NCBI GenBank assembly: GCA_028020825.1
Contig: CM051638.1
Coordinates: forward strand, 14,400,861-14,464,860
Reading direction: 5' to 3'
DNA length: 64,000 bases
Source of the DNA: Podargus strigoides
Taxonomy: Eukaryota
The position numbers and the translations under genes were made by a program. Of this stretch, positions 1 through 60,050 are shown one piece after another. The notes under the pieces are model-generated. The model searched no databases and was not told the origin of the DNA. It saw only the letters and a list, made by a program, of their open reading frames with translations. Position 1 is the first letter of the stretch, and each line of letters starts with the position of its first letter.

Positions 1-33
1 CTGGGGGACAGCAGGCCTAGGGGGACACACACA

Positions 34-500: not shown

Positions 501-3500
501 GGGAACAGTGCTGGGTGACAGCAGGCCTAGGGGAACACACAGAGCGGGTGAGGGAACAGTGCTGGGGGACAGCAGGCCTAGGGGGACACACACAGTGGGT
601 GAGGTTACAGTGCTGGGGGACTGCATTCCTAGGGGGACACACAGAGTGTGTGAGGGAACAGTGTTGGGGGACAGCAGGCCTAGGGGGACACACAGAGTGG
701 GTTAGGGAACACTGCTGGGGGACAGCAGGCCTAGGGGGACACACACAGTGGGTGAGGGAACAGTTCTGGGGCAGAGCAGGCCTAGGGGGACACACACAGT
801 GGGTGAGGGAACAGTGCTGGGGCACAGCAGGCCTAGGGGGACACACAGAGTGGGTGAGGGAACAGTTTTGGGGGACAGCAGGCCTAGGGGGACACACACA
901 GTGGGTGAGGGAACAATGTTGGGGGACAGCAGGCCTAGGGGGACCCACACAGTGGGTGGGGAAACAGTACTGGGGGACAGCAGGCCTAGGGGGGCACACA
1001 CAGTGGGTGAGGGAACAGTTTTGGGGGACAGCAGGCCTAGGGGGACACACACAGTGGGTGAGGGAACAGTGTTGGGGGACAGCAGGCCTAGGGGGACCCA
1101 CACAGTGGGTTAGGGAACAGTGCTGGGAGACAGCAGGCCTAGGGGGACACACACAGTTGGTGAGGAAACAGTGCTGTGGGACAGGAGGCCTAGGGGGACC
1201 CACACAGTGGTGTAGGGAACAGTGCTGGGTGACAGCAGGCCTAGGGGGACACACAGAGCGGGTGAGGGAACAGTGCTGGGGGACAGCAGGCCTAGGGGGA
1301 CACACGCAGTGGGTGAGGTTAAAGTGATGGGGGACTGCATTCCTAGGGGGACACACAGAGTGTGTGAGGGAACAGTGTTGGGGGACATCAGGCCTAGGGG
1401 GACACACAGAGTGGGTGAGGGAACACTGCTGGGGGACAGCAGGCCTAGGGGGACACACACAGTGGGTGAGGGGTTAATGCTGGGGGACTGCAGGCCTAGG
1501 GGGACACACACAGTGGGTGAGGGAACAGTGCTGGGGGACAGCAGGCCTAGGGGTATACACACAGTGGGTCGGGAACCCGTACTGGTGGACAGCAGGCCTA
1601 TGGGGACACACACAGTGGGTGAGGGAACAGTTTTGGGGGACAGCAGGCCTAGGGGGACCCACACAGTGGGTGGGGAAACACTGCTGGGGGACAGCAGGCC
1701 TAGGGGGGCACACACAGTGGGTGAGGGAACAGTTTTGGGGGACAGCAGGCCTAGGGGGACACACAGAGTGGGTGAGGGAACAGTGGTGGGGGACAGCAGT
1801 CCTAGGGGGACACACAGAGTGGGTGAGGGAACTGTGCTTGGGGACAGCAGGCCTAGGGGGGCATACTCAGTGGGTGAGGGAACAGTGTTGGGGGACAGCA
1901 GGCCTAGGGGGACGAACACTGACTGAGAGGTGTTGGGGGACAGTAGGCCTAGGGGGACACACAGAGTGGATGAGGGAACAGTCCTGGGGGAATGCAGGCC
2001 AAGGGGGACACCCACAGTGGGTGAGGGAGCAGTGCTGGGGGAATGCAGGCCTAGGGGGACACCCAGAGTGGGTCAGGGAACAGTGCTGGGGGACAGCAGG
2101 CCTAGGGGGACACACGCAGTTGGTGAGGGAACCGTGCTGGGGGACAGCAGGCCTAGGGGGACAGACACAGTGGGTGAGGGAACAGTGCTGGGGCACAGCA
2201 GGCCTAGGGGGACACACTGAGTGGGTGAGGGAACAGTGCTGGGGGACAGCAGGCCTAGGGGGACACACACAGTGGGTGAGGGAACAGTGTTGGGGGACAG
2301 GAGGCCTAGGGGGGCACACACAGTGGGTGAGGGAACAGTGCTGGGGGACAGCAGGCCTAGGGGGACACACACAGTGGATGAGGGAACAGTGTTGGGGGAC
2401 AGCAGGCCTAGGGGGACACACACAGTGGGTGAGGGAACAGTGTTGGGGGACAGCAGCCCTAGGTGGGCATACACAGTGGGTGAGGGAAGAGTGCTGGGGG
2501 AAGGCAGGCTTAGGGGGGCACACACAGTGGGTGCGGGAACCTTGCTGGGGGACAGCAGGCCTAGGGGGACACACACAGTGGGTGAGGGAAAAGTGCTGGG
2601 GGACAGGAGTTCTAGGGCGACACACACAGTGGGTGAGGGAACAGTGCTGGGGGACAGCAGGCCTAGGGGGGCATACACAGTGGGTGAGGGAACAGTGTTG
2701 GGGGACAGCAGGCCTAGGGGGACACACACAGTGGGTGAGGGAACAGTGTTGGGGGACAGCAGCCCTAGGGGTGCACACACAGTGGGTGAGGGAACAGTGT
2801 GGGGGGACAGCAGTCCTAGGTGGACACACACATTGGATGAGGGAACAGTGCTGGGGGACAGCAGGCCTAGGGGGACACACACAGTGGGTGAGGGAACAGT
2901 GTTGGGGGACAGCAGGCCTAGGGGGGCACACACAGTGGGTGTGGGAACTGTGCTGGGGTACAGCAGGCCTAGGGGGACCCACACAGTGGGGTAGGGAACA
3001 GTGCTGGGTGACAGCAGGCCTAGGGGGACACACAGAGTGGGTGAGGGAACAGTGTTAGGGGACAGCAGGCCTAGGGGGACACACAGAGTGGGTGAGGGAA
3101 CAGTGCTGGGGGACAGCAGTCCTAGGTGGACACACACAGTGGGTGAGGAAAGAGTGTTGGGGGACAGCAGGCCTAGGGGGACACACAGAGTGGGTGAGGG
3201 AACAGTGTTGGGGGAGAGCAGGCCTAGGGGGGCACACACAATGGGTGAGGGAACAGTGTTGGGGGACAGCAGGCCTAGGGGGACACACACAGTGTGTGAG
3301 GGAACTGTGCTGGGGGACAGCAGGCCTAGGGGGGCATACACAGTGGGTGCGGGAACAGTGTTGGGGGACAGCAGGCCTCGGGGGACACACACAGTGGGTG
3401 AGGTAACAGTACTGGGTGATAGCAGGCCTAGGGGGACACACACATAGGGTGAGGAAAGAGTGTTGGGGGACAGCAGGCCAAGGGGACACACAGAGTGAGT

Positions 3501-4668
3501 GAAGGAACAGTGTTGGGGGACAGCAGGCCTAGGGGGACACACAGTGGGTGAGGGAACAGTGTTGGGTGACAGCAGGTCTAGGGGGACACACAGAGTGGGT
3601 GATGGAACAGTGCTGGGGGACAGCAGGCCTAGGGGGGCCCACACAGTGGGGTAGGGAACAGTGCTGGGTGACAGCAGGCCTAGGGGCACACACAGAGTGG
3701 GTGAGGAAACAGTGTTGGGGGACAGCAGGCCTCGGGGGACACACAGAGTGGGTGAGGGAACAGTGTTGGGGGACACCAGGGCTAGGGGGACACACAGAGT
3801 GGGTAAGGGAACATTGCTGGGGGACAGCAGGCCTAGGGGGGCACACGCAGTGGGTGAGGGAAGAGTGTTTGGGGACAGCAGGCCTAGGGGGGCACACACA
3901 GTGGGTGTGGGAACAGTGTTGGGGGACAGGAGGCCTAAGGGGAACCACACGGTGGGGTAGGGAACAGTGCTGGGTGACACCAGGCTTAGGGGGACACGCA
4001 CAGTGGGTGAGGAAACAGTTTTGGGGGACAGCAGGCCTAGGGGGACACACAGAGTGGATTAGGGAACAGAGGTGGGGGACAGCAGGCCTAGGGGGACACA
4101 CACAGTGGGTGAGGGAACAGTGCTGGGGGACAGCAGGTCTAGGGGGTCACACACAGTGGGTGAAGGAACAGTGCTGTGGGACAGCTGGATTAGGGGGACA
4201 CACACAGTGTGTGAGGGAACAGTGTTGGGGGACAGCAGTCCTAGGGGGACACACACAGTGGGTGAGGAAACAGTGCTGGGGGACAGCAGGCCTAGGGGGA
4301 CACACACAGTGTGTGAGGGAACAGTGCTGGGTGATAGCAGGCCTTGGGGGACACACACGGTGGGTGAGGGAACAGTGTTGGGGGACAGCAGGCCTAGGGG
4401 GACACACACCATAGGTGAGGGAACAGTGCTGGGGGACAGCAGGCCTAGGGGCAATCCACAGTGGGTGAGGGAACAGTGTTGGGGGACAGCAGTCCTAGGG
4501 GGGCACACACAGTGGGTGAGGGAACAGTGCTGGGGGACAGCAGGCCTAGGGGGGCATACACAGTGGGTGCGGGAACAGTGTTGGGGGACAGCAGGCCTTG
4601 GGGGACACACACAGTGGGTGAGGGAACAGTGCTGGGTGATAGCAGGCCTAGGGTGACACACACATAGG
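446..4668. repeat. Higher-order repeat, type A, copy 1 (segments P-Q-R, ~4,223 bp)
   Basis: Pseudo-ORF pairs are identical at an offset of +6,209 bp: 748→6957, 1110→7319, 1517→7726, 2073→8282 and 3548→9757. At +4,223 bp, segment P pairs 515→4669-frame and 748→4971. Confidence 0.7.
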
Positions 4669-6654
4669 GTGAGGAAACAGTGTTGGGGGACAGCAGGCCT
4701 AGGGGGGCACACACAGTGTGTGTGGGAACCATGCTGGGGGACAGGAAGCCAAGGGGGACCCACAAAGTGGGGTAGGGATCAGTGCTGGGTGACAGCAGGC
4801 CTAGGGGGACACACACAGTGGGTGAGGTTACAGTGCTGGGGGACTGCATTCCTAGGGGGACACACAGAGTGTGTGAGGGAACAGTGTTGGGGGACAGCAG
4901 GCCTAGGGGGACACACAGAGTGGGTTAGGGAACACTGCTGGGGGACAGCAGGCCTAGGGGGACACACACAGTGGGTGAGGGAACAGTTCTGGGGCAGAGC
5001 AGGCCTAGGGGGACACACACAGTGGGTGAGGGAACAGTGCTGGGGCACAGCAGGCCTAGGGGGACACACAGAGTGGGTGAGGGAACAGTTTTGGGGGACA
5101 GCAGGCCTAGGGGGACACACACAGTGGGTGAGGGAACAATGTTGGGGGACAGCAGGCCTAGGGGGACCCACACAGTGGGTGGGGAAACAGTACTGGGGGA
5201 CAGCAGGCCTAGGGGGGCACACACAGTGGGTGAGGGAACAGTTTTGGGGGACAGCAGGCCTAGGGGGACACACACAGTGGGTGAGGGAACAGTGTTGGGG
5301 GACAGCAGGCCTAGGGGGACCCACACAGTGGGTTAGGGAACAGTGCTGGGAGACAGCAGGCCTAGGGGGACACACACAGTTGGTGAGGAAACAGTGCTGT
5401 GGGACAGGAGGCCTAGGGGGACCCACACAGTGGTGTAGGGAACAGTGCTGGGTGACAGCAGGCCTAGGGGGACACACAGAGTGGGTGAGGAAACAGTGTT
5501 GGGGGACAGCAGGCCTAGGGGGACACACAGTGGGTGAGGGAACAGTGTTGGGTGACAGCAGGTCTAGGGGGACACACAGAGTGGGTGATGGAACAGTGCT
5601 GGGGGACAGCAGGCCTAGGGGGGCCCACACAGTGGGGTAGGGAACAGTGCTGGGTGACAGCAGGCCTAGGGGCACACACAGAGTGGGTGAGGAAACAGTG
5701 TTGGGGGACAGCAGGCCTCGGGGGACACACAGAGTGGGTGAGGGAACAGTGTTGGGGGACACCAGGGCTAGGGGGACACACAGAGTGGGTAAGGGAACAT
5801 TGCTGGGGGACAGCAGGCCTAGGGGGGCACACGCAGTGGGTGAGGGAAGAGTGTTTGGGGACAGCAGGCCTAGGGGGGCACACACAGTGGGTGTGGGAAC
5901 AGTGTTGGGGGACAGGAGGCCTAAGGGGAACCACACGGTGGGGTAGGGAACAGTGCTGGGTGACACCAGGCTTAGGGGGACACGCACAGTGGGTGAGGAA
6001 ACAGTTTTGGGGGACAGCAGGCCTAGGGGGACACACAGAGTGGATTAGGGAACAGAGGTGGGGGACAGCAGGCCTAGGGGGACACACACAGTGGGTGAGG
6101 GAACAGTGCTGGGGGACAGCAGGTCTAGGGGGTCACACACAGTGGGTGAAGGAACAGTGCTGTGGGACAGCTGGATTAGGGGGACACACACAGTGTGTGA
6201 GGGAACAGTGTTGGGGGACAGCAGTCCTAGGGGGACACACACAGTGGGTGAGGAAACAGTGCTGGGGGACAGCAGGCCTAGGGGGACACACACAGTGTGT
6301 GAGGGAACAGTGCTGGGTGATAGCAGGCCTTGGGGGACACACACGGTGGGTGAGGGAACAGTGTTGGGGGACAGCAGGCCTAGGGGGACACACACCATAG
6401 GTGAGGGAACAGTGCTGGGGGACAGCAGGCCTAGGGGCAATCCACAGTGGGTGAGGGAACAGTGTTGGGGGACAGCAGTCCTAGGGGGGCACACACAGTG
6501 GGTGAGGGAACAGTGCTGGGGGACAGCAGGCCTAGGGGGGCATACACAGTGGGTGCGGGAACAGTGTTGGGGGACAGCAGGCCTTGGGGGACACACACAG
6601 TGGGTGAGGGAACAGTGCTGGGTGATAGCAGGCCTAGGGTGACACACACATAGG
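4669..6654. repeat. Type A higher-order repeat, internally deleted copy (segments P-R; the ~2,237-bp segment Q is missing; ~1,986 bp)
   Basis: Segment P (4669-5530) matches 446-1307 at offset 4,223. Segment R (5534-6835) matches 3548-4849 at offset 1,986. The difference 4,223-1,986 = 2,237 bp equals the length of Q. Confidence 0.7.
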
Positions 6655-9600
6655 GTGAGGAAACAGTGTTGGGGGACAGCAGGCCTAGGGGGGCACACAC
6701 AGTGTGTGTGGGAACCATGCTGGGGGACAGGAAGCCAAGGGGGACCCACAAAGTGGGGTAGGGATCAGTGCTGGGTGACAGCAGGCCTAGGGGGACACAC
6801 ACAGTGGGTGAGGTTACAGTGCTGGGGGACTGCATTCCTAGGGGGACACACAGAGTGTGTGAGGGAACAGTGTTGGGGGACAGCAGGCCTAGGGGGACAC
6901 ACAGAGTGGGTTAGGGAACACTGCTGGGGGACAGCAGGCCTAGGGGGACACACACAGTGGGTGAGGGAACAGTTCTGGGGCAGAGCAGGCCTAGGGGGAC
7001 ACACACAGTGGGTGAGGGAACAGTGCTGGGGCACAGCAGGCCTAGGGGGACACACAGAGTGGGTGAGGGAACAGTTTTGGGGGACAGCAGGCCTAGGGGG
7101 ACACACACAGTGGGTGAGGGAACAATGTTGGGGGACAGCAGGCCTAGGGGGACCCACACAGTGGGTGGGGAAACAGTACTGGGGGACAGCAGGCCTAGGG
7201 GGGCACACACAGTGGGTGAGGGAACAGTTTTGGGGGACAGCAGGCCTAGGGGGACACACACAGTGGGTGAGGGAACAGTGTTGGGGGACAGCAGGCCTAG
7301 GGGGACCCACACAGTGGGTTAGGGAACAGTGCTGGGAGACAGCAGGCCTAGGGGGACACACACAGTTGGTGAGGAAACAGTGCTGTGGGACAGGAGGCCT
7401 AGGGGGACCCACACAGTGGTGTAGGGAACAGTGCTGGGTGACAGCAGGCCTAGGGGGACACACAGAGCGGGTGAGGGAACAGTGCTGGGGGACAGCAGGC
7501 CTAGGGGGACACACGCAGTGGGTGAGGTTAAAGTGATGGGGGACTGCATTCCTAGGGGGACACACAGAGTGTGTGAGGGAACAGTGTTGGGGGACATCAG
7601 GCCTAGGGGGACACACAGAGTGGGTGAGGGAACACTGCTGGGGGACAGCAGGCCTAGGGGGACACACACAGTGGGTGAGGGGTTAATGCTGGGGGACTGC
7701 AGGCCTAGGGGGACACACACAGTGGGTGAGGGAACAGTGCTGGGGGACAGCAGGCCTAGGGGTATACACACAGTGGGTCGGGAACCCGTACTGGTGGACA
7801 GCAGGCCTATGGGGACACACACAGTGGGTGAGGGAACAGTTTTGGGGGACAGCAGGCCTAGGGGGACCCACACAGTGGGTGGGGAAACACTGCTGGGGGA
7901 CAGCAGGCCTAGGGGGGCACACACAGTGGGTGAGGGAACAGTTTTGGGGGACAGCAGGCCTAGGGGGACACACAGAGTGGGTGAGGGAACAGTGGTGGGG
8001 GACAGCAGTCCTAGGGGGACACACAGAGTGGGTGAGGGAACTGTGCTTGGGGACAGCAGGCCTAGGGGGGCATACTCAGTGGGTGAGGGAACAGTGTTGG
8101 GGGACAGCAGGCCTAGGGGGACGAACACTGACTGAGAGGTGTTGGGGGACAGTAGGCCTAGGGGGACACACAGAGTGGATGAGGGAACAGTCCTGGGGGA
8201 ATGCAGGCCAAGGGGGACACCCACAGTGGGTGAGGGAGCAGTGCTGGGGGAATGCAGGCCTAGGGGGACACCCAGAGTGGGTCAGGGAACAGTGCTGGGG
8301 GACAGCAGGCCTAGGGGGACACACGCAGTTGGTGAGGGAACCGTGCTGGGGGACAGCAGGCCTAGGGGGACAGACACAGTGGGTGAGGGAACAGTGCTGG
8401 GGCACAGCAGGCCTAGGGGGACACACTGAGTGGGTGAGGGAACAGTGCTGGGGGACAGCAGGCCTAGGGGGACACACACAGTGGGTGAGGGAACAGTGTT
8501 GGGGGACAGGAGGCCTAGGGGGGCACACACAGTGGGTGAGGGAACAGTGCTGGGGGACAGCAGGCCTAGGGGGACACACACAGTGGATGAGGGAACAGTG
8601 TTGGGGGACAGCAGGCCTAGGGGGACACACACAGTGGGTGAGGGAACAGTGTTGGGGGACAGCAGCCCTAGGTGGGCATACACAGTGGGTGAGGGAAGAG
8701 TGCTGGGGGAAGGCAGGCTTAGGGGGGCACACACAGTGGGTGCGGGAACCTTGCTGGGGGACAGCAGGCCTAGGGGGACACACACAGTGGGTGAGGGAAA
8801 AGTGCTGGGGGACAGGAGTTCTAGGGCGACACACACAGTGGGTGAGGGAACAGTGCTGGGGGACAGCAGGCCTAGGGGGGCATACACAGTGGGTGAGGGA
8901 ACAGTGTTGGGGGACAGCAGGCCTAGGGGGACACACACAGTGGGTGAGGGAACAGTGTTGGGGGACAGCAGCCCTAGGGGTGCACAGACAGTGGGTGAGG
9001 GAACAGTGTGGGGGGACAGCAGTCCTAGGTGGACACACACATTGGATGAGGGAACAGTGCTGGGGGACAGCAGGCCTAGGGGGACACACACAGTGGGTGA
9101 GGGAACAGTGTTGGGGGACAGCAGGCCTAGGGGGGCACACACAGTGGGTGTGGGAACTGTGCTGGGGTACAGCAGGCCTAGGGGGACCCACACAGTGGGG
9201 TAGGGAACAGTGCTGGGTGACAGCAGGCCTAGGGGGACACACAGAGTGGGTGAGGGAACAGTGTTAGGGGACAGCAGGCCTAGGGGGACACACAGAGTGG
9301 GTGAGGGAACAGTGCTGGGGGACAGCAGTCCTAGGTGGACACACACAGTGGGTGAGGAAAGAGTGTTGGGGGACAGCAGGCCTAGGGGGACACACAGAGT
9401 GGGTGAGGGAACAGTGTTGGGGGAGAGCAGGCCTAGGGGGGCACACACAATGGGTGAGGGAACAGTGTTGGGGGACAGCAGGCCTAGGGGGACACACACA
9501 GTGTGTGAGGGAACTGTGCTGGGGGACAGCAGGCCTAGGGGGGCATACACAGTGGGTGCGGGAACAGTGTTGGGGGACAGCAGGCCTCGGGGGACACACA

Positions 9601-10877
9601 CAGTGGGTGAGGTAACAGTACTGGGTGATAGCAGGCCTAGGGGGACACACACATAGGGTGAGGAAAGAGTGTTGGGGGACAGCAGGCCAAGGGGACACAC
9701 AGAGTGAGTGAAGGAACAGTGTTGGGGGACAGCAGGCCTAGGGGGACACACAGTGGGTGAGGGAACAGTGTTGGGTGACAGCAGGTCTAGGGGGACACAC
9801 AGAGTGGGTGATGGAACAGTGCTGGGGGACAGCAGGCCTAGGGGGGCCCACACAGTGGGGTAGGGAACAGTGCTGGGTGACAGCAGGCCTAGGGGCACAC
9901 ACAGAGTGGGTGAGGAAACAGTGTTGGGGGACAGCAGGCCTCGGGGGACACACAGAGTGGGTGAGGGAACAGTGTTGGGGGACACCAGGGCTAGGGGGAC
10001 ACACAGAGTGGGTAAGGGAACATTGCTGGGGGACAGCAGGCCTAGGGGGGCACACGCAGTGGGTGAGGGAAGAGTGTTTGGGGACAGCAGGCCTAGGGGG
10101 GCACACACAGTGGGTGTGGGAACAGTGTTGGGGGACAGGAGGCCTAAGGGGAACCACACGGTGGGGTAGGGAACAGTGCTGGGTGACACCAGGCTTAGGG
10201 GGACACGCACAGTGGGTGAGGAAACAGTTTTGGGGGACAGCAGGCCTAGGGGGACACACAGAGTGGATTAGGGAACAGAGGTGGGGGACAGCAGGCCTAG
10301 GGGGACACACACAGTGGGTGAGGGAACAGTGCTGGGGGACAGCAGGTCTAGGGGGTCACACACAGTGGGTGAAGGAACAGTGCTGTGGGACAGCTGGATT
10401 AGGGGGACACACACAGTGTGTGAGGGAACAGTGTTGGGGGACAGCAGTCCTAGGGGGACACACACAGTGGGTGAGGAAAGAGTGCTGGGGGACAGCAGGC
10501 CTAGGGGGACACACACAGTGTGTGAGGGAACAGTGCTGGGTGATAGCAGGCCTTGGGGGACACACACGGTGGGTGAGGGAACAGTGTTGGGGGACAGCAG
10601 GCCTAGGGGGACACACACCATAGGTGAGGGAACAGTGCTGGGGGACAGCAGGCCTAGGGGCAATCCACAGTGGGTGAGGGAACAGTGTTGGGGGACAGCA
10701 GTCCTAGGGGGGCACACACAGTGGGTGAGGGAACAGTGCTGGGGGACAGCAGGCCTAGGGGGGCATACACAGTGGGTGCGGGAACAGTGTTGGGGGACAG
10801 CAGGCCTTGGGGGACACACACAGTGGGTGAGGGAACAGTGCTGGGTGATAGCAGGCCTAGGGTGACACACACATAGG
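6655..10877. repeat. Higher-order repeat, type A, copy 2 (P-Q-R, ~4,223 bp), near-identical to copy 1
   Basis: Translations are identical over hundreds of residues, for example 2073..4001 (642 aa) against 8282..10210 (642 aa) and 1517..3058 against 7726..9267. Confidence 0.75.
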
Positions 10878-11189
10878 GTGAGGAAACAGTGTTGGGGGAC
10901 AGCAGGCCTAGGGGGGCACACACAGTGTGTGTGGGAACCATGCTGGGGGACAGGAAGCCAAGGGGGACCCACAAAGTGGGGTAGGGATCAGTGCTGGGTG
11001 ACAGCAGGCCTAGGGGGACACACACCGTGGGTGAGGGAATAGTGCTGGGGGATAGCAGGCCTAGGTGGGCATACACAGTGGGTGAGGGAAGAGTGCTGGG
11101 GGAAGGCAGGCTTAGGGGGACACACACAGTGGGTGAGGGAAAAGTGCTGGGGGACAGGAGTTCTAGGGCGACACACACAGTGGGTGAGG

Positions 11190-47400: not shown

Positions 47401-50400
47401 GCTGGGGGACAGCAGGCCTAGGAGGACACACACAGTGGGTGAGGGATTAGTGCTGGGGGACTGCAGGCCTAGGGGGACACACACAGTGGTGTAGGGAACA
47501 GTGCTGGGTGACAGCAGGCCTATTGGGACACACAGAGCGGGTGAGGGAACACTGCTGGGGGACAGCAGGCCTAGCGGGACACACAGAGTGGGTGAGGTTA
47601 CAGTGCTGGGGGACTGCATTCCTAGGGGGACACACAGAGTGGGTGAGGGAACACTGTTGGGGAACAGCAGGCCTAGGGGGCCACACAGAGTGGGTGAGGG
47701 AACACTGCTGGGGGACAGCAGGCCTAGCGGGACACACAAAGTGGGTGAGGGAACAGTGCTGGGGCACAGCAGGCCTAGGGGGACACACAGAGTGGGTGAG
47801 GGAACAGTGCTGGGGGACAGCAGGCCTAGGGGGACACACACAGCGGGTGAGGGATTAGTGCTGGGGGACTGCAGGCCTAGGCGGACACACACATTGGGTG
47901 AGGGAACAGTGTTGGGGGACAGCAAGCCTAGGGGGGCACACACAGTGGGTGACGGAACAGTTTTGGGGGACAGCAGGCCTAGGGGGACACACACAGTGGG
48001 TGAGGGAACAGTGTTGGGGGACAGCAGGCCTAGGGGGACCCACACAGTGGGGTAGGGAACAGTGCTGGGTGACAGCAGGCCTACGGGGACACACACAGTT
48101 GGTGAGGGAACAGTGGTGGGGGACAGCAGGCCTAGGGGGACACACAGAGTGGGTGAGGGAACAGTGCTGGGGGACAGCAGGCCTTAAGGGACACACAGAG
48201 TGGGTGAGGGTACTGTGCTTGGGGACAGCAGGCCTAGGGGGACGCACACTGGGTGCGGGAACAGTGTTGGGGCACAGCAGTCCTTGGGGGACACACAGAG
48301 TGGGTGAGGGAACAGTGCTGGGGGACAGCAGGCCTAGAGGGACACACACAGTGGGTGAGGAAACAATGTTGCGGGACAGCAGGCCTAGGGGGACACACAC
48401 AGTGGGTGAGGGAACAGTGCTGGGGGACAGCGGCCTAGGGGGGCACACACAGTGGGTGAGGGAACAGTGTTGGGGGACAGCAGGCCTAGGGGGACACACA
48501 GAGTGGGTGAGGGAAAACTGCTGGGGGACAGCAGGCTAGGGGGACACACGCAGTTGGTGAGGGAACCGTGCTGGGGGACAGCAGGCCTAGGGGGACACAC
48601 ACAGTGGGTGAGGGAACAGTGCTGGGGCAGAGCAGGCCTAGGGGGACACACAGAGTGGGTGAGGGAACATTGCTGGGGGACAGCAGGCCTATGGGGACAC
48701 ACGCAGTAGGTGAGGGAACCGTGCTGGGGGACAGCAGGCCTAGGGGGACCCACACAGTGGGTGAGGGAACAGTGCTGGGGGACAGCAGGCCTAGGGGGAC
48801 ACACAGAGTGGGTGAGGGAACAGTGCTGGGGGACAGCAGGCCTAGGGGGAAACACAGAGTGGGTGAGGGAACAGTGTTGGGGGACAGCAGTCCTAGAGGG
48901 ACACACAGAGTGGGTGAGGGAACGGTGCTTGGGGACAGCAGGCCTAGGGGGACACACACAGTGGGTGAGGGAACAGTGCTGGGGGACAGCAGGCATAGGG
49001 GGACACACAGAGTGGGTGAGGGAACAGTGCTGGGGGACAGCAGGCCTTAGGGGACACACAGAGTGGGTGAGGGAACTGTGCTTGGGGATAGCAGGCCTAG
49101 GGGGACACACACAGTGGGTGAGGGAACAGTGCTGGGGAGCAGCAGGCCTAGGGGGACACACACAGTGGGTGAGGGAAGAGTGCTGGGGGACAGCCGGCCT
49201 AGGGTGACCCACAGAGTGGGTGAGGGAACAGTGCTGGGGGACAGCAGGCCTAGGGGGAAACACAGAGTGGGTGAGGGAACAGTGTTGGGGGACAGCAGTC
49301 CTAGAGGGACACACAGAGTGGGTGAGGGAACGGTGCTTGGGGACAGCAGGCCTAGGGGGACGAACACTGACTGAGAGAACAGTGTTGGGGGACAGTAGGC
49401 CTAGGGGGACACTCAGAGTGGATGAGGGAACAGTCCTGGGGGAATGCAGGCCAAGGGGGACACCCACAGTGGGTGGGGGAGAAGTGCTGGGGGAATGCAG
49501 GCCTAGGGGGACACCCAGAGTGGGTCAGGGAACAGTGCTGGGGGACAGCAGGCGTAGGGGGACACACACAGTGGGTGAGGGAACACTGCTGGGGGACAGC
49601 AGGCCTAGGGGGACACACACCCTTGGTGAGGTTACAGTGCTGGGGGACTGCATGCCTAGGGGGACACACAGAGTGGGTGAGGGAACAGTGTTGGGGGACA
49701 GCAGGCCTACGGGACACACACAGTGGGTGAGGGAACAGTGTTGGGGGACAGCAGGTCTAGGGGGACACACAGAGTGGGTGAGGGAACAGTGCTGTGGGAC
49801 AGCAGGCATAGGGGGACCCACACAGTGGTGTAGGGAACAGTGCTGGGTGACAGCAGGCCAATTGGGACACACAGAGTGGGTGAGGGAACACTGCTGTGGG
49901 ACAGCAGGCCTAGCGGGACACACAGAGTGGGTGAGGTTACAGTGCTGGGGGACTGCATTCCCAGGGGGACCCACACAGTGGGGTAGGGAACAGTGCTGGG
50001 TGACAGCAGGCCTAGGGGGACACACACAGTTGGTGAGGGAACAGTGGTGGGGGGACAGCAGGCATAGGGGGACACACCGAGTGGGTGAGGGAACAGTGCT
50101 GGGGGACAGCAGGGCCTTAGGGGACACACAGAGTGGGTGAGGGAACTGTGCTTGGGGATAGCAGGCCTAGGGGGACACACACAGTGGGTGAGGGAACAGT
50201 GCTGGGGAGCAGCAGGCCTAGGGGGACACACACAGTGGGTGAGGGAAGAGTGCTGGGGGACAGCCGGCCTAGGGGGACCCACACAGTGGGTAAGCGAACA
50301 TTGCTGGGGGACAGCAGGCCTAGGTGGGCATACTCAGTGGGTGAGGGAACAGTGCTGGGGGACAGCAGGCCTAGGGGGACACACACAGTGGGTGAGGGAA

Positions 50401-53400
50401 CAGTGTTGGGGGACATCAGGTCTAGGGGGACACACAGAGTGGGTGAGGGAACAGTGCTGGGGGACAGCAGGCCTAGGGGCACACACGCAGTTGGTGAGGG
50501 AACCGTGCTGGGGGACAGGAGGCCTAGGGGGACACACACAGTGGGTGAGGGAACAGTTCTGGGGCAGAGCAGGCCTAGGGGGACACACAGAGTGGGTGAG
50601 GGAACAGTGCTGGGGGACTGCAGGCCTAGGGGGACACACACAGTGGTGTAGGGAACAGTGCTGGGTGACAGCAGGCCTAGGGGGACACACAGAGCGGGTG
50701 AGGGAACAGTGCTGGGGGACAGCAGGCCTAGGGGGACACACACAGTGGGTGAGGTTACAGTGCTGGGGGACTGCATTCCTAGGGGGACACACAGAGTGTG
50801 TGAGGGAACAGTGTTGGGGGACAGCAGGCCTAGGGGGACAGACAGAGTGGGTGAGGGAACAGTGCTGGGGGACAGCAGGCCTGGGGGGATACACACAGTG
50901 GGTGGGGAACCCGTACTGGGGGACAGCAGGCCTATGGGGACACACACAGTGGGTGAGGGAACAGTTTTGGGGGACAGCAGGCCTAGGGGACCCACACAGT
51001 GGGTGGGGAAACAGTGCTGGGGGACAGCAGGACTAGGGTGGCACACACAGTGGGTGAGGGAACAGTTTTGGGGGACAGCAGGCCTAGGGGGACACACAGA
51101 GTGGTTGAGGGCACAGTGGTGGGGGACAGAAGTCCTAGGGGGACACACAGAGTGGGTGAGGGAACTGTGCTTGGGGACAGCCGGCCTAGGGGGACACACA
51201 CACGGTGGGTGAGGGAACAGTGTTGGGGGACAGCAGGCCTAGGGGGACATACACAGTGGGTGCGGGAACAGTGCTGGAGGACAGCAGGCCTAGGGGGACA
51301 CACACCCTTGGTGAGGTTACAGTGCTGGTGGACTGCATGCCTAGGGGGACACACAGAGTGGGTGAGGGAACAGTGTTGGGGGACAGCAGGCCTAGGGGGA
51401 CACACACAGTGGGTGAGGGATTAGTGCTGGGGGACTGCAGGCCTAGGGGGACACACACAGTGGGTGAGGGAATAGTGCTGTGGGAGAGCAGGCCTAGGGG
51501 GACACACACAGTGGGTGAGGGATTAGTGCTGGGGGACTGCAGGCCTAGGGGGACACACACAGTGGGTGAGGGAACAGTGCTGCGGGACAGTAAGCCTAGG
51601 GGGATACACACAGTGGGTGGGGAACCCGTACTGGGGGACAGCAGGCCTAGGGGGACACACACAGTGGGTGAGGAAACAGTTTTGGCGGACAGCAGGCGTA
51701 GGGGGACACACACAGTGGGTGAGGGAACAATGTTGGGGGACAGCAGGCCTAGGGGGACCCACACAGTGGGTGGGGAAACAGTGCTGGGGGACAGCAGGCC
51801 TAGGGGGCACACACAGTGGGTGAGGGAGCAGTTTTGGGGGACAGCAGGCCTAGGGGGACACACAGAGTGGGTGAGGGAACAGTGGTGGGGGACAGCAGTC
51901 CTAGGGGGACACACAGAGCGGGTGAGGGAACTGTGCTTGGGGACAGCAGGCCTAGGGGGACACACACAGTGGGCGAGGGAACAGTGCTGGGGGACAGCAG
52001 GCCTAGGGGGACACACAGAGTGGGTGAGGAAACTGTGTTGGAGGACAGCAGTCCTAGGGGGACACACAGAGTGGGTGAGGGAAGAGTGCTGGGGGACAGC
52101 CGGCCTAGGGGGACCCACACAGTGGGTAAGGGAACATTGCTGGGGGACAGCCGGCCTAGGGGGACGAACACTGAGTGAGAGAACAGTGTTGGGGGACAGT
52201 AGGCCTAGGGGGACACACAGAGTGGATGAGGGAACAGTCCTGGGGGAATGCAGGCCAAGGGGGACACCCACAGTGGGTGAGGGAACAGTGCTGGGGGACA
52301 GCAGGCCTAGGGGGACACACACAGTGGGTGCGGGAACAGTGCTGGAGGACAGCAGGCCTAGGGGGACACACACAGTGGGTGAGGGAACAGTGTTAGGGGA
52401 CAGCAGGCCTAGGGGGACACACACAGTGGGTGAGGGAACAGTGTTGGGGGACAGCAGGTCTAGGGGGACACACAGAGTGGGTGAGGGAACAGTGCTGTGG
52501 GACAGGAGGCCTAGGGGGACCCACACAGTGGTGTAGGGAACAGTGCTGGGTGACAGCAGGCCTATTGGGACACACAGAGTGGGTGAGGGAACAGTGTTGG
52601 GGAACAGCAGGCCTAGGTGGACACACAGAGTGGGTGAGGGAACAGTGCTGGGGGACAGCAGGCCTAGGGGGACACACACAGTGGGTGAGGGAACAGTGCT
52701 GGGGCACAGCAGGCCTAGGGGGACACACAGAGTGGGTGAGGGAACAGTGGTGGGGGACAGCAGGCCTAGGGGGACACACACAGTGGGTGAGGGATTAGTG
52801 CTGGGGCACTGCAGTACTAGGGGGACACACAGAGTGGGTGAGGGAACAGTGCTGGGGGACAGCAAGCCTAGGGGGATACACACAGTGGGTGGGGAACCAG
52901 TGCTGGGGGACAGCAGGCCTAGGGGGACACACACAGTGGGTGAGGGAACAGTTTTGGGGGACAGGAGGCCTAGGGGGACACACACAGTGGGTGAGGGAAC
53001 AATGTTGGGGGACAGCAGGCCTAGGGGGACCCACACAGTGGGTGGGGAAACAGTGCTGGGGGACAGCAGGCCTAGGGGGGCACACACAGTGGGTGAGGGA
53101 ACAGTTTTGGGGGACAGCAGGCCTAGGGGGACACACACAGTGGGTGAGGGAACAGTGTTGGGGGACAGCAGGCCTAGGGGGACCCACACAGTGGGTTAGG
53201 GAACAGTGCTGGGTGACAGCAGGCCTAGGGGGACACACACAGTTGGTGAGGAAACAGTGTTGGGGGACAGCAGGCCTAGGGGGACACACAGAGTGGGTGG
53301 GGGAACAGTGGTGGGGGACAGCAGGCCTCGGGGGACACACAGAGTGTGTGAGGGAACAGTGCTGGGGGACAGCAGGCCTAGGGGGACACACAGAATGGGT

Positions 53401-55889
53401 GAGGAAACAGTGTTGGGGGACAGCAGTCCTAGGGGGACACACAGAGTGGGTGAGGGAAGAGTGCTGGGGGACAGCCGGCCTAGGGGGACCCACACAGTGG
53501 GTAAGGGAACATTGCTGGGGGACAGCAGGCCTAGGGGGACGCACACTGACTGAGAGAACAGTGTTGGGGGACAGTAGGCCTAGGGGGACACACAGAGTGG
53601 ATGAGGGAACAGTCCTGGGGGAATGCAGGCCTAGGGGGACACCCACAGTGGGTGAGGGAACAGTGCTGTGGGAATGCAGGCCTAGGGGGACACCCAGAGT
53701 GGGTCAGGGAACAGTGCTGGGGGACAGCACGCCTAGGGGGACACGCACAGTGGGTGCGGGAACAGTGCTGGAGGACAGGAGGCCTAGGGGGACACACACA
53801 GTGGGTGAGGGAAAAGTGTTGGGGGACAGCAGGCCTAGGGGGACACACACAGTGGGTGAGGGAACAGTGTTAGGGGACAGCAGGCCTAGGGGGACACACA
53901 TAGTGGGTGAGGGAACAGTGTTGGGGGACAGCAGGTCTAGGGGGACACACAGAGTGGGTGAGGGAACAGTGCTGTGGGACAGGAGGCCTAGGGGGACCCA
54001 CACAGTGGTGTAGGGAACAGTGCTGGGTGACAGCAGGCCTAGTGGGACACACAGAGTGGGTGAGGGAACAGTGTTGGGGGACAGCAGGCCTAGGGGGACA
54101 CACAGAGTGGGTGAGGGAACACTGCTGGTTGACAGCAGGCCTAGGGGGACACACGCAGTTGGTGAGGGAAACGTGCTGGGGGACAGCAGGCCTAGGGGGA
54201 CACACACAGTGGGTGAGGGAACAGTGTTGGGGGACAGCAGGCCTAGGGGGACACACACAGTGGGTGAGGAAAGAGTGCTGGGGCACAGCAGGCCTAGGGG
54301 GACACACACAGGGTATGAGGGATCAGTGTTGGGGCACAGCAGGCCTAGGGGGACACACAGAGTGGGTGAGGGAATAGTGTTGGGGAACAGCAGGCCTAGG
54401 GGGACACGCACAGTGGGTGAGGGAACAGTGCTGGGGGACAGCAGGCCTAGGGGGACACACACAGTGGGTGAGGAAACAGTTTTGGGGGACAGCAGGCCGA
54501 GGGGGACACACAGAGTGGGTTAGGGAACAGTGGTGGCGGATAGCAGGCCTAGGGGGACACACACAGTGGGTGAGGGAATAGTGCTGTGGGACAGCAGGCC
54601 TAGGGGGACCCACACAGTGGTGTAGGCAATAGTGCTGGGTGACAGCAGGCCTAGGGGGACACACAGAGCGGGTGAGGGAACAGTGCTGGGGGACAGCAGG
54701 CCTAGGGGGACACACAGAGTGGGTGAGGGAACACTGCTGGGGGACAGCAGGCCTAGGGGGACACACGCAGTTGGTGAGGGAACCGTGCTGGGGGACAGCA
54801 GGCCTAGGGGGACACACACAGTGGGTGAGGGAACAGTTCTGGGGCAGAGCAGGCCTAGGGGGACACACAGATTGGGTGAGGGAACAGTGCTGGGGGACAG
54901 CAGGCCTAGGGGGACACACACAGTGGTGTAGGGAACAGTGCTGGGTGACAGCAGGCCTAGGGGGACACACAGAACGGGTGAGGGAACAGTGCTGGGGGAC
55001 AGCAGGCCTAGGGGGACACACACAGTGGGTGAGGTTACAGTGCTGGGGGACTGCATTCCTAGGGGGACACACAGAGTGTGTGAGGGAACAGTGTTGGGGG
55101 ACAGCAGGCCTAGGGGGACACACAGAGTGGGTGAGGGAACACTGCTGGGGGACAGCAGGCCTAGGGGGACACACGCAGTTGGTGAGGGAACCGTGCTGTG
55201 CGACAGCAGGCCTAGGGGGACACACACAGTGGGTGAGGGAACTGTGCTGGGGCACAGCAGGCCTAGGGGGACACACAGAGTGGGTGAGGGAACAGTGCTG
55301 GGGGACAGCAGGCCTAGGGGGACACACACAGTGGGTGAGGGATTAGTGCTGGGGGACTGCAGGCCTAGGGGGACACACACAGTGGGTGAGGGAACAGTGC
55401 TGGGGGACAGCAGGCCTAGGGGGATACACACAGTGTGTGGGGAACCCGTACTGGGGGACAGCAGGCCTAGGGGGACACACACAGTGGGTGAGGGAACAGT
55501 TTTGGGGGACAGCAGGCCTAGGGGGACCCACACAGTGGGTGGGGAAACAGTGCTGGGGGACAGCAGGCCTAGGGGGGCACACACAGTGGGTGAGGGAACA
55601 GTTTTGGGGGACAGCAGGCCTAGGGGGACACACAGAGTGGGTGAGGGAACAGTGGTGGGGGACAGCAGTCCTAGGGGGACACACAGAGTGGGTGAGGGAA
55701 CTGTGCTTGGGGACAGCAGGCCTAGGGGGACACACACAGTGGGTGAGGGAACAGTGTTGGGGGACAGCCGGCCTAGGGGGGCATACTCAGTGGGTGATGG
55801 AACAGTGTTGGGGGACAGCAGGCCTAGGGGGACGAACACTGACTGAGAGAACAGTGTTGGGGGACAGTAGGCCTAGGGGGACACATAGA

Positions 55890-58800
55890 GTGGATGGGGG
55901 AACAGTCCTGGGGGAATGCAGGCGAAGGGGGACACCCACAGTGGGTGAGGGAGCAGTGCTGGGGGAATGCAGGCCTAGGGGGACACACGCAGTTGGTGAG
56001 GGAACCGTGCTGGGGGACAGCAGGCCTAGGGGGACACACACAGTGGGTGAGGGAACAGTGCTGGGGCAGAGCAGGCCTAGGGGGACACACAGAGTGGGTG
56101 AGGGAACATTGCAGGGGGACAGCAGGCCTATGGGGACACACGCAGTTGGTGAGGGAACCGTACTGGGGGACAGCAGGCCTAGGGGGACCCACACAGTGGG
56201 TGAGGGAACAGTGCTGGGGGACAGCAGGCCTAGGGGGACACACAGAGTGGGTGAGGGAACAGTGCTGGGGGACTGCATTCCTAGGGGGACCCACACAGTG
56301 TGTGAGGGAACAGTGTTGGGGGACAGCAGGCCTAGGGGGACACACAGAGTGGGTGAGGGAACACTGCTGGGGGACAGCAGGCCTAGGGGGACACACGCAG
56401 TTTGTGAGGGAACCGTGCTGGGGGACAGCAGGCCTAGGGGGACACACAGAGTGGGTGAGGGAAGAGTGCTGGGGGACAGCAGGCCTAGGGGGACACACAC
56501 AGTGGGTCAGGGATTAGTGCTGGGGGACTGCAGGCCTAGGGGGACACACACAGTGGGTGAGGGAACAATGTTGGGGGACCACAGGCCTAGGGGGACCCAC
56601 ACAGTGGGTGGGGAAACAGTACTGGGGGACAGCAGGCCTAGGGGGGCACACACAGTGGGTGAGGGAACAGTTTTGGGGGACAGCAGGCCTAGTGGGACAC
56701 ACAGAGTGGGTGAGGAAACAGTTTTGGGGGACAGCAGGCCTAGTGGGACACACAGAGTGGGTGAGGAAACAGTGTTGGGGGACAGCAGTCCTAGGGGGAC
56801 ACACAAAGTGGGTGAGGGAAGAGTGCTGGGGGACAGCCCTCTAGGGGGACCCACACAGTGGGTAAGTGAACATTGCTGGGGGACAGCAGGCCTAGGGGGG
56901 CATACTCAGTGGGTGAGGGAACAGTGTTGGGGGACAGCAGGCCTAGGGGGACGAACACTGACTGAGAGAACAGTGTTGGGGGACAGTAGGCCTAGGGGGA
57001 CACACAGAGTGGATGAGGGAACAATCCTGGGGGAATGCAGGCCAAGGGGGACACCCACAGTGGGTGGGGGAGCAGTGCTGGGGGAATGCAGGCCTAGGGG
57101 GACACCCAGAGTGGGTCAGGGAACAGTGCTGGGGGACAGCAGGCCTAGGGGGACATACACAGTGGGTGAGGGAACACTGCTGGGGGACAGCAGGCCTAGG
57201 GGGACACACACCCTTGGTGAGGTTACAGTGCTGTGGGACTGCATGCCTAGGGGGACACACAGAGTGGGTGAGGGAACAGTGTTGGGGGACAGCAGGCCTA
57301 CGGGACACACACAGTGGGTGAGGGAACAGTGTTGGGGGACAGCAGGCCTAGGGGGACACACAGAGTGGGTGAGGGAATAGTGCTGTGGGACAGCAGGCCT
57401 AGGGGGACCCACACAGTGGTGTAGGAAATAGTGCTGGGTGACAGCAGGCCTAGGGGGACACATACAGTGGGTGAGGGATTAGTGCTGGGGGACTGCAGGC
57501 CTAGGGGGACACACACAGTGGTTGATGGAACAGTTCTGGGGCAGAGCAGGCCTAGGGGGACACACAGAGTGGGTGAGGGAAGAGTGCTGGGGGACAGCAG
57601 GCCTAGGGGGACACACACAGTGGGTGAGGGATTAGTGCTGGGGGACTGCAGGCCTAGGGGGACACACACAGTGGTGTAGGGAACAGTGCTGGGTGACAGC
57701 AGGCCTATTGGGACACACAGAGCGGGTGAGGGAACACTGCTGGGGGACAGCAGGCCTAGCGGGACACACAGAGTGGGTGAGGTTACAGTGCTGGGGGACT
57801 GCATTGCTAGGGGGACACACAGAGTGGGTGAGGGAACACTGTTGGGGAACAGCAGGCCTAGGGGGCCACACAGAGTGGGTGAGGGAACACTGCTGGGGGA
57901 CTGCAGGCCTAGCGGGACACACACAGTGGGTGAGGGAACAGTGCTGGGGCACAGCAGGCCTAGGGGGACACACAGAGTGGGTGAGGGAACAGTGCTGGGG
58001 GACAGCAGGCCTAGGGGGACACACACAGCGGGTGAGGGATTAGTGCTGGGGGACTGCAGGCCTAGGCGGACACACACATTGGGTGAGGGAACAGTGTTGG
58101 GGGACAGCAGGCCTAGGGGGACCCACACAGTGGGGTAGGGAACCGTGCTGGGTGACAGCAGGCCTAGGGGGACACACACAGTTGGTGAGGGAACAGTGGT
58201 GGGGGACAGCAGGCCTACGGGGACACACAGAGTGGGTGAGGGAACACTGCTGGGGGACAGCAGGCCTTAGGGGACACACAGAGTGGGTGAGGGAACTGTG
58301 CTTGGGGACAGAAGGCCTAGGGGTACACACACAGTGGGTAAGCGAACATTGCTGGGGGACAGCAGGCCTAGGGGGACACACAGAGTGGGTGAGGGAACAG
58401 TGCTGGGGGACAGCAGGCCTAGGCGGACACACACAGTGGGTGAGGAAACAATGTTGCGGGACAGCAGGCCTAGGGGGACACACACAGTGGGTGAGGGAAC
58501 AGTGCTGGGGGACAGCGGCCTAGGGGGGCACACACAGTGGGTGAGGGAACAGTTTTGGGGGACAGCAGGCCTAGGGGGACACACAGAGTGGGTGAGGGAA
58601 CACTGCTGGGGGACAGCAGGCCTAGGGGGACACACGCAGTTGGTGAGGGAACCGTGCTGGGGGACAGCAGGCCTAGGGGGACACACACAGTGGGTGAGGG
58701 AACAGTGCTGGGGCAGAGCAGGCCTAGGGGGACACACAGAGTGGGTGAGGGAACATTGCTGGGGGACAGCAGGCCTATGGGGACACACGCAGTTGGTGAG

Positions 58801-60050
58801 GGAACCGTACTGGGGGACAGCAGGCCTAGGGGGACCCACACAGTGGGTGAGGGAACAGTGCTGGGGGACAGCAGGCCTAGGGGGACACACAGAGTGGGTG
58901 AGGGAACAGTGCTGGGGGACTGCATTCCTAGGGGGACCCACACAGTGTGTGAGGGAACAGTGTTGGGGGACAGCAGGCCTAGGGGGACACACAGAGTGGG
59001 TGAGGGAACACTGCTGGGGGACAGCAGGCCTAGGGGGACACACGCAGTTTGTGAGGGAACCGTGCTGGGGGACAGCAGGCCTAGGGGGACACACAGAGTG
59101 GGTGAGGGAAGAGTGCTGGGGGACAGCAGGCCTAGGGGGACACACACAGTGGGTCAGGGATTAGTGCTGGGGGACTGCAGGCCTAGGGGGACACACACAG
59201 TGTGTGAGGGAACAATGTTGGGGGACCACAGGCCTAGGGGGACCCACACAGTGGGTGGGGAAACAGTACTGGGGGACAGCAGGCCTAGGGGGGCACACAC
59301 AGTGGGTGAGGGAACAGTTTTGGGGGACAGCAGGCCTAGTGGGACACACAGAGTGGGTGAGGAAACAGTTTTGGGGGACAGCAGGCCTAGTGGGACACAC
59401 AGAGTGGGTGAGGAAACAGTGTTGGGGGACAGCAGTCCTAGGGGGACACACAAAGTGGGTGAGGGAAGAGTGCTGGGGGACAGCCCTCTAGGGGGACCCA
59501 CACAGTGGGTAAGTGAATATTGCTGGGGGACAGCAGGCCTAGGGGGGCATACTCAGTGGGTGAGGGAACAGTGTTGGGGGACAGCAGGCCTAGGGGGACG
59601 AACACTGACTGAGAGAACAGTGTTGGGGGACAGTAGGCCTACGGGGACACACAGAGTGGATGAGGGAACAATCCTGGGGGAATGCAGGCCAAGGGGGACA
59701 CCCACAGTGGGTGGGGGAGCAGTGCTGGGGGAATGCAGGCCTAGGGGGACACCCAGAGTGGGTCAGGGAACAGTGCTGGGGGACAGCAGGCCTAGGGGGA
59801 CATACACAGTGGGTGAGGGAACACTGCTGGGGGACAGCAGGCCTAGGGGGACACACACCCTTGGTGAGGTTGCAGTGCTGTGGGACTGCATGCCTAGGGG
59901 GACACACAGAGTGGGTGAGGGAACAGTGTTGGGGGACAGCAGGCCTACGGGACACACACAGTGGGTGAGGGAACAGTGTTGGGGGACAGCAGGCCTAGGG
60001 GGACACACAGAGTGGGTGAGGGAACAGTGCTGTGGGACAGCAGGCATAGG
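55890..60050. repeat. Tandem 2,647-bp duplication (55.9-57.4 kb matches 58.55-60.05 kb)
   Basis: Identical ORF pairs: 56507..56854 = 59154..59501, 56514..56804 = 59161..59451, 56557..56844 = 59204..59491, 56943..57308 ≈ 59590..59955 and 57013..57321 ≈ 59660..59968. Confidence 0.65.

Follow-up and report, generated by a model that had tools for sequence, protein, structure and literature searches.

Human hypervariable G-rich minisatellites such as MS32 (D1S8) have been studied by MVR maps, in which interspersed variant units record the exchange history, and classical minisatellites span 0.5–30 kb. Primate alpha satellite is a centromeric repeat with a unit of about 171 bp that is organized in higher-order repeats. 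The tandem array described here resembles both systems in part. Like MS32/D1S8 it is G-rich and strand-asymmetric and contains variant units that record its history, a likeness at the level of general description rather than of aligned sequences. However, it extends over at least 64 kb (1257 units), which is far more than in classical minisatellites, and its variants travel as segments of 12–83 units, which is unlike MS32/D1S8. As in alpha satellite, monomers that differ from each other by about 12.6% are combined with multi-monomer segments that are 98.5–99.9% identical and with distinct domains that carry private variants, but the unit is only 51 bp long and there is no constant higher-order period. 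The literature on 51-bp satellites yielded As51 and otherwise unrelated papers. As51 is an AT-rich satellite of Astyanax and Psalidodon fishes (PMC13170303). A 51-bp tandem unit is common to As51 and our array, but the likeness is one of unit length alone; As51 is by its description AT-rich (PMC13170303), whereas the unit here has 62% G+C.

We found that the window, which is the whole 64,000-nucleotide stretch of DNA analysed, is filled by head-to-tail copies of the unit in a single orientation (87% match and 0% indels in TRF). Both ends of the window cut through the array and no array edge lies inside the 64 kb. The G-rich strand is the plus strand, and at a GC content of 0.62 the GC skew remains at about +0.40 along the entire window. 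In the wrap-around alignment, 1185 units had a length of 51 bp, and lengths of 50 and 49 bp occurred 32 times each; 45 bp (n = 3) and 52–53 bp (n = 5) were rarer. On average, a unit differs from the consensus at 3.7 positions. The consensus unit is free of CpG, and the observed/expected CpG ratio of the array is 0.07. The array most likely derives from a eukaryotic genome, and the CpG depletion, although seen in what amounts to a single 51-bp sequence, points possibly to a vertebrate. An exact 38-mer and a degenerate 32-mer had no match in viral, prokaryotic-genome and JGI metagenome contigs, blastn against plasmid and phage collections gave no match, and ten k-mers taken from both strands did not occur in the full text of 8 million papers. 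A looser periodic pattern was present at 19 loci of the contig collections. Three of these (L001, L006, L016) were checked by TRF and rejected as relatives, being an unrelated 4-copy 51-bp repeat with only GGTGAGGGAAC in common.

The array is non-coding. Of the 1257 units, 1120 have a TAG at column 17 and 980 have a TGA at column 38, and one frame of every unit holds the consensus stops. The first-pass annotation had described dense stop codons on the plus strand as confined to a recurrent marker block. This description did not hold, since a typical unit already has two stops and the marker units have two to four. Only two of the 50 units with 4–6 stops are marker units, and 19 units have a stop in each of the three frames, of which again only two are marker units. 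Only 14 of 124 ends of open stretches of at least 600 nt fall inside a marker unit, and the longest open stretch (35771–40307, 4.5 kb of the 64 kb) crosses three marker blocks. A protein-coding tandem repeat (a gene with a 17-residue repeat) was considered and rejected: 72 of the 1257 units have a length that is not divisible by 3, and the frame that is open changes along the array. Pfam gave sub-threshold repeat noise but no real domain in the array, two ORF translations had no homologue among 5.8 billion proteins, and neither an Rfam family nor a tRNA was found in the array. Since the copies run head to tail in one orientation and are non-coding, the window can be classed as a portion of a large array of satellite or giant minisatellite DNA.

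The marker block itself recurs as had been proposed. When we searched for the 19-mer GACGAACACTGACTGAGAG with up to two mismatches, it was found exactly 19 times, always on the plus strand, and 100 dinucleotide shuffles contained no such match. Seventeen of the positions listed earlier were exact, and the remaining two sites start at 46150 and 49359 instead of 46149 and 49358 (1 bp off). The four proposed sub-variants (GACGAACAC, GACGCACAC, GATGAACAC, TGAGTGAGAG) are all present. The two TGA codons of the marker are 4 bases apart and therefore lie in different frames, as had been stated. The block length of about 200 bp was likewise borne out: 13 copies have 202 bp, three have 198 bp and three have 151 bp, the last being the three TGAGTGAGAG copies, which are without the fourth unit. 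A characteristic run of variants follows every marker site, in agreement with the atypical units noted before; all 30 occurrences of GGGGGAATGCAGG lie within three units downstream of a marker and all 14 occurrences of GGATGAGGGAACAGTCCTGGGGGAATG are downstream of a marker. In the alignment that had been suggested as a check, the blocks showed a mean pairwise divergence of 5.1%, compared with 12.6% for random 4-unit stretches, the lowest value among the latter being 9.9% in 2000 draws.

The block consists of four neighbouring monomers of the array unit (M0–M3) that carry private mutations, and such a variant-repeat block is an ordinary feature of satellite DNA. M0 is shortened to 49 bp (45 bp in three copies) and heavily mutated, with 6–12 differences from the consensus. 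Its changes comprise 4–5 substitutions and one 2-bp deletion, to which lineage A adds another deletion of 4 bp, but the first 26 and the last 8–9 unit columns are unchanged. Downstream of M0 come two or three monomers with mild variation, and these are almost confined to that position. In M2 and M3 the near-palindrome of the unit is made perfect (CACCCAC-A-GTGGGTG). Compared with five consensus units, the block has a mean column identity of 95% and the register of the array is unbroken through it. The blocks fall into the lineages given in Table 1, in which the block at 35739 has three units because M3 is missing.

Table 1. Tandem array, marker blocks and proto-marker units in the window
Positions	Strand	Feature	Lineage	Remarks
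1..64000	+	Tandem array, 51-bp unit CTGGGGGACAGCAGGCCTAGGGGGACACACACAGTGGGTGAGGGAACAGTG		TRF, wrap-around alignment, GC skew
1888..2085	+	Block	A	Marker 45 bp (extra 4-bp loss), then M1–M3
8097..8294	+	Block	A	45-bp marker; within 83-unit duplicate (6771–10993) of 562–4784, 99.9% identical, 0.04 mismatches/unit
23979..24176	+	Block	A	45-bp marker; within 74–78-unit duplicate, 0.3 mismatches/unit
32582..32783	+	Block	A2	Marker 49 bp, A-type flanks
34773..34974	+	Block	B	GACGAACAC / TGACTGAGAG, 49 bp
35739..35889	+	Block	C	TGAGTGAGAG; three units
36757..36958	+	Block	D	GACGCACAC; marker form nearest consensus
38845..39046	+	Block	B	Copy of 34773 block, 80-unit offset
39913..40063	+	Block	C	Copy of 35739 block, 82-unit offset
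41084..41285	+	Block	D	Copy of 36757 block, 85-unit offset
42663..42864	+	Block	D	Copy of 41084 block, 31-unit offset
44650..44851	+	Block	E	GATGAACAC, CpG-to-TpG change
46127..46328	+	Block	E	29-unit tandem duplicate of 44650 block, 0.03 mismatches/unit
48218..48266	+	Proto-marker unit, 49 bp		GACGCACAC and 2-bp deletion, GGGTG.GGG half intact
49336..49537	+	Block	B	Divergent member
52140..52290	+	Block	C	Three units; copy of 39913 block, 240-unit offset
53515..53716	+	Block	D	Copy of 42663 block, 213-unit offset
55808..56009	+	Block	B	Fourth unit hybrid
56927..57128	+	Block	B	
59574..59775	+	Block	B	Copy of 56927 block, 52-unit offset
62017..62114	+	Two neighbouring proto-marker units, 49 bp each		'AT..C' variant unit next, at 62166

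In the proto-marker units (48218, 62017 and 62066), only the first two of the marker mutations are present. They are consistent with a stepwise origin of M0 from a normal unit, but they could alternatively be gene-conversion hybrids between a marker and a normal unit.

Sub-variants of the marker had been suggested to trace the duplication history of the array, and here marker, flank and offset data agree. A cluster for each of lineages A, C, D and E is seen in the marker unit and again in units +1 to +3 of the block, and the flanks on either side independently gave the same grouping. When block sub-variants were compared with the flanking units, as had been recommended, Mantel tests yielded p-values of about 0.001 and 0.007. 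Lineage B is paraphyletic, so the history recorded in the lineages is incomplete. All marker-to-marker spacings checked correspond to offsets of near-identical multi-unit duplications (for instance 122, 312, 29, 52, 80, 82, 85, 31, 213 and 240 units), and therefore the idea of a duplication history recorded in lineages stands. Altogether, 72 near-identical diagonal runs of 12–83 units each cover 1031 of the 1257 units, and it is from irregular duplications of this size that the array is pieced together.

Insertion of an unrelated sequence, for example a transposon fragment, with later amplification as part of the array had been offered as a possible source of the block. M0 is indeed the most divergent recurrent unit (6–12 differences against a mean of 3.7) and is shorter than 51 bp, but all block columns align with the consensus in register, including the conserved beginning and end of M0, and part-mutated intermediate units exist. 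The sole inverted repeats are the internal near-palindromes of the unit, and neither terminal repeats nor a target-site duplication were detected at the block edges. Phage and plasmid collections gave no match either. We consider a foreign origin extremely improbable. Alternatively, the block might act as functional punctuation, that is as a G-quadruplex-breaking spacer, a protein-binding site or a transcript boundary. Four-run motifs of the G3+N1–12 type occur 869 times on the plus strand and never on the minus strand, and all 19 M0 units have only two G-runs compared with four in 817 units; moreover, the palindrome of M2 and M3 is perfect. However, 74 other units have likewise two G-runs, the blocks are irregularly spaced and half of the array is almost without them. 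The sub-variants drift freely, with the defining motif included, and there is no sign of selection and no Rfam match. A CTCF-like motif, judged by eye, was dropped because its key GGC positions are unmatched. A functional role of this kind appears very improbable.

The block had further been proposed as a phase marker for higher-order repeats. This proposal has only loose support, and there is neither a constant period nor a fixed phase. Duplicates are offset by anything from 29 to 608 units, no single offset dominates, and the best offsets lift the mean identity only from 0.874 to 0.887. Block-to-block spacings vary between 19 and 312 units, and 47 of the 72 long duplicated runs are without any block. 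The related expectation that blocks lie at repeat boundaries was not supported: 10% of the duplication endpoints were near blocks compared with 15% expected, which is no enrichment. Blocks lie 0–26 units inside duplicated segments and only 1 of 25 was at a segment edge. The left 32 kb has three blocks and yet is 95% covered by duplications, the majority of them without a block. Regular higher-order organization of the alpha-satellite type, with a constant period and one marker per copy at a fixed phase, is thus not seen here, and a true higher-order repeat with one phase-marking block per higher-order copy is unlikely. On the other hand, the lineages in the right half follow the order B-C-D, B-C-D, ..., C-D with spacings of 19/21 units from B to C, 20/23/27 from C to D and 41/45 from D to B, which corresponds to a super-repeat of about 80–85 units. 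When compared in register, the neighbourhoods of B, C and D are also somewhat more similar than background over about 25 units (about 4 mismatches per unit against a background of 6.4), a possible sign of an earlier period close to 20 units. As a tentative and rather doubtful extension of these data, the block may be the last recognizable trace of a higher-order repeat that was about 20 units long in the ancestral array. In that case the window would include a domain boundary at about 32.5 kb, with an older part rich in blocks on one side and a younger part on the other; the latter may have been rebuilt through very recent duplications of 2–6 kb. If true, this would be a layered-expansion architecture as in centromeric satellites, in a G-quadruplex-prone 51-bp satellite.

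Taken as a whole, the block is very probably a passively copied cluster of variant units in a non-coding 51-bp satellite with no function of its own. What was directly observed is the homology between block and array unit, the existence of the lineages and of a hybrid monomer, and the offsets between duplicates; the lack of evidence for a function suggests that the block has none of its own. By parsimony, the first steps in M0 would have been an A>G change, by which a CpG arose, and the loss of 2 bp (AG). A change of GGGTGAGGG to GACTGAGAG would then have given lineage D and a C>A change lineage B. From lineage B, lineage E would have arisen by CpG>TpG, lineage C by C>G and lineage A by another 4-bp loss. 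Subsequently, the M0–M3 cluster would have been copied passively whenever a multi-unit stretch holding it was duplicated. These duplications were likely produced by out-of-register homologous exchange, in the form of unequal crossing-over or sister-chromatid exchange, or by replication slippage in the array; rolling circle and break-induced replication are other candidates. In the hybrid unit (55959–56009), the 5′ part corresponds to M3 and the 3′ part to the next unit after M3 in lineage A, and this structure is what an out-of-register exchange with the removal of one unit would be expected to produce.

The block matters little alone and its value is that of a record of array growth, which proceeded via repeated duplication, in register, of segments that comprise many units. 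As internal landmarks it offers five lineages, three units of intermediate form and a single hybrid unit, which may be used for assembly checks, for the comparison of haplotypes or individuals and for dating expansions. Neither a gene nor a mobile element nor a coding signal should be read into the block. Apart from the marker blocks, the left half of the array contains another, comparable divergent cluster (units such as those at 4632, 4683 and 4734), which recurs 10–12 times and has up to six stops per unit.

The window is a single array of the 51-bp unit CTGGGGGACAGCAGGCCTAGGGGGACACACACAGTGGGTGAGGGAACAGTG, which Tandem Repeats Finder traced over 1-64000 (1257 copies, 87% match), and both window ends still lie within the array. 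When the window was cut into units by a wrap-around dynamic programme against the cyclic consensus, 1185 of the 1257 units measured 51 bp, and the others 50 bp (32 units), 49 bp (32), 45 bp (3) or 52-53 bp (5). The G+C content is 0.62 and the GC skew is about +0.40 in each 2-kb bin; since it is positive in all of these bins, the + strand is the G-rich strand along the whole window. The consensus unit contains no CpG, the observed/expected CpG ratio of the window is 0.07, and TG and CA occur in excess. A weak 17-bp sub-period (51 = 3 x 17) was seen in period-17 rows of Tandem Repeats Finder (55-64% match, e.g. 4227-4302 and 35422-46051), and the unit may go back to a motif like GGGGGACAGCAGGCCTA that was triplicated.

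The first-pass annotation had described a 19-mer (the marker) that opens a recurring block of about 200 bp at 19 sites. Apart from its stop-codon part, this observation is real. We found 19 matches at up to two mismatches, all on the + strand, and their coordinates agreed except for two that shifted by one base (46150 and 49359); in 100 dinucleotide shuffles the 19-mer did not occur. The marker monomer, M0, is shortened and in array register (49 bp in 16 copies, 45 bp in 3) and has 6-12 differences to the consensus, whereas units of the array have 3.7 on average. It is followed by three characteristic variant units, M1 with the signature GACAGTAGG...GGATGAGGG...GTC, and M2 and M3 with GGGGGAATGCAGG...ACACCCA. 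All 30 occurrences of GGGGGAATGCAGG in the window fall at most three units after a marker, and because the M2/M3 signature is confined to this position, a block of about 200 bp is real. The blocks are also more alike than random parts of the array, diverging by 5.1% among themselves versus 12.6% for random sets of four-unit stretches.

When the 19 blocks were aligned by MAFFT together with two intermediate units and five consensus units, the mean column identity was 95%, and the only gaps were the small ones already known. Lineage D, one of the groups of marker sub-variants (A, A2, B, C, D, E), is nearest to the consensus; its marker reads GGGGGACGCACAC--TGACTGAGAGAACAGTG versus GGGGGACACACACAGTGGGTGAGGGAACAGTG and differs by one A>G, a 2-bp deletion and three G substitutions. 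An origin of the block from an unrelated inserted sequence had been suggested, and this idea is wrong, because the blocks align with the consensus, no terminal repeats were found at their edges (of inverted repeats, only the near-palindrome internal to the unit occurs nearby) and the array register is continuous through them. The most economical series of mutations would lead from the consensus via proto-markers, units with part of the marker mutations, to lineage D, from D to B by C>A, and from B to E by CpG>TpG, to C by C>G and through A2 to A, the latter by a further 4-bp loss. We infer the direction from this order of economy; alternatively, the proto-markers could be conversion hybrids.

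Coordinates of features of the array and of metagenomic repeats compared with it
Feature	Position	Strand	Remarks
45-bp M0 copies	1888, 8097, 23979	+	wrap-around unit alignment
Proto-marker units	48218, 62017, 62066	+	only A>G and 2-bp deletion; GGGTG.GGG half intact
Duplication	units 11-93 to 133-215		offset 122; 0.04 mismatches per unit
Duplication	units 142-219 to 454-531		offset 312; 0.32 mismatches per unit
Duplication	units 861-889 to 890-918		offset 29 (tandem); 0.03 mismatches per unit
Duplication	units 1099-1126 to 1151-1178		offset 52; 0.29 mismatches per unit
Duplication	units 820-860 to 1033-1073		offset 213; 0.78 mismatches per unit
Hybrid monomer	55959-56009	+	fourth unit of block at 55808
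Second divergent cluster	4632-4784		three consecutive units (4632, 4683, 4734); left domain only
Further copies of this cluster (about 10)	6618, 10841, 14505, 16337, 17559, 20921, 22500, 26723, 28351
Unrelated 51-bp repeat	L001 11269-11476, WLWD01005103.1		metagenome contig; ~4 copies of ACACTACACATGGAGTAGGTAAGGTGTGGAAAGTGGTGGGCGGGTGAGGGA
Unrelated 51-bp repeat	L006 909-1116, WLWI01012728.1		metagenome contig; ~4 copies of ACACTACACATGGAGTAGGTAAGGTGTGGAAAGTGGTGGGCGGGTGAGGGA
Unrelated 51-bp repeat	L016 11778-11952, WLWD01005333.1		metagenome contig; ~4 copies of ACACTACACATGGAGTAGGTAAGGTGTGGAAAGTGGTGGGCGGGTGAGGGA

The proposal that the sub-variant lineages trace the duplication history is right. 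In separate trees of M0, of M1-M3, of the eight units on the left and of the eight on the right, the members of A, C, D and E clustered by lineage, and Mantel testing of M0 against its flanks yielded p = 0.001 and 0.007. Unit-by-unit comparison yielded 72 diagonal runs (minimum length 12 units, up to about 2 mismatches per unit), which together extend over 1031 of the 1257 units, and the spacing of same-lineage markers equals the offsets of the duplicated runs in the table. In the right half, the lineage order is B C D / B C D / D / E E / B / C D / B B B, and the spacings (B>C 19/21 units, C>D 20/23/27, D>B 41/45) add up to a super-repeat of roughly 80-85 units (4.1-4.3 kb) that went through duplication of its own and later editing. 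Compared in register, different lineages show about 4 mismatches per unit over some 25 units versus a background of 6.4, a modest gain in similarity that weakly hints at an older period near 20 units.

The related idea that the block is a phase marker for higher-order repeats is right only loosely. The partial super-repeat and the hint of an older period speak for it, but the best offsets lift the mean identity from 0.874 to 0.887 only, the runs enclose the blocks at 0-26 units from one end (a single block sits at the edge) and 47 of the 72 runs contain no block at all. Run endpoints were not enriched near blocks either (10% versus 15% expected, 72 runs). Since no single offset dominates, the block does not mark the phase of a regular higher-order repeat but is a landmark carried along as a passenger in irregular segmental duplications. 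Its spread would have proceeded by unequal homologous exchange or slippage. One hybrid monomer takes its 5' part from M3, an 'AT' variant, and its 3' part from the unit next after M3 in lineage A, the product expected of an out-of-register exchange removing one unit. A recurrent variant block is nothing unusual in satellite DNA.

The claim that the blocks carry the only dense stop codons on the + strand failed, as the consensus unit itself contains TAG (column 17, in 1120 of the 1257 units) and TGA (column 38, in 980). These codons share one unit frame and the repeat length is a multiple of three, so that two frames are open over long stretches. Marker units carry 2-4 stops and account for two of the 50 units with 4-6 stops. 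Open stretches of at least 600 nt end inside a marker unit in 14 of 124 cases, and the longest one (35771-40307) crosses three blocks.

The array is neither coding nor a known RNA. A Pfam search returned sub-threshold repeat noise only, two ORF translations (one per strand) had no homologue among 5.8 billion proteins, and Rfam and ARAGORN found nothing. Neither viral contigs nor prokaryotic genomes, JGI metagenomes, plasmids or phages in the collections searched contained a match, and ten k-mers of the array had none in the full text of papers. In lacking prokaryotic matches, in its size, in its CpG depletion and in the CpG>TpG change of one marker lineage, the array resembles vertebrate G-rich mini- and macro-satellites. 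A looser periodic pattern retrieved 19 loci, and the three examined carry an unrelated 51-bp repeat that has only GGTGAGGGAAC in common with the window unit; their contigs are eukaryote-looking sequence with microsatellites. As51 of characiform fishes, the only 51-bp satellite found in a literature search, shares the unit length with the array but is AT-rich (PMC13170303), whereas the window has a G+C content of 0.62.

Two array domains can be distinguished (1-32581 and 32582-64000). In the left one, 95% falls within near-identical duplications 12 or more units long (up to 83 units, with 0.04 mismatches per unit), and there are only 3 blocks; in the right one the share is 68%, the modules are shorter and the blocks number 16. 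Most unit variants are restricted to one of the domains: 89% of the left and 69% of the right units have an identical twin within their own domain, compared with 21% and 23% in the other domain. The block is not unique, as other divergent unit clusters recur as often. The second cluster in the table recurs 10-12 times, each of its units is 5-8 positions off the consensus, and its first unit has 6 stops, above every marker unit.

Each unit contains the near-palindrome CACACAC-A-GTGGGTG (e.g. 2009-2023), which an A>C change in M2 and M3 renders perfect (CACCCAC-A-GTGGGTG). That CACAGTG inside the unit is spelled like the heptamer of V(D)J recombination signals is probably coincidental. Non-overlapping four-run G3+N1-12 motifs (G-quadruplex potential) number 869 on the + strand and 0 on the - strand of the whole window, and the usual four G-runs are reduced to two in all 19 marker units and in 55 other units.
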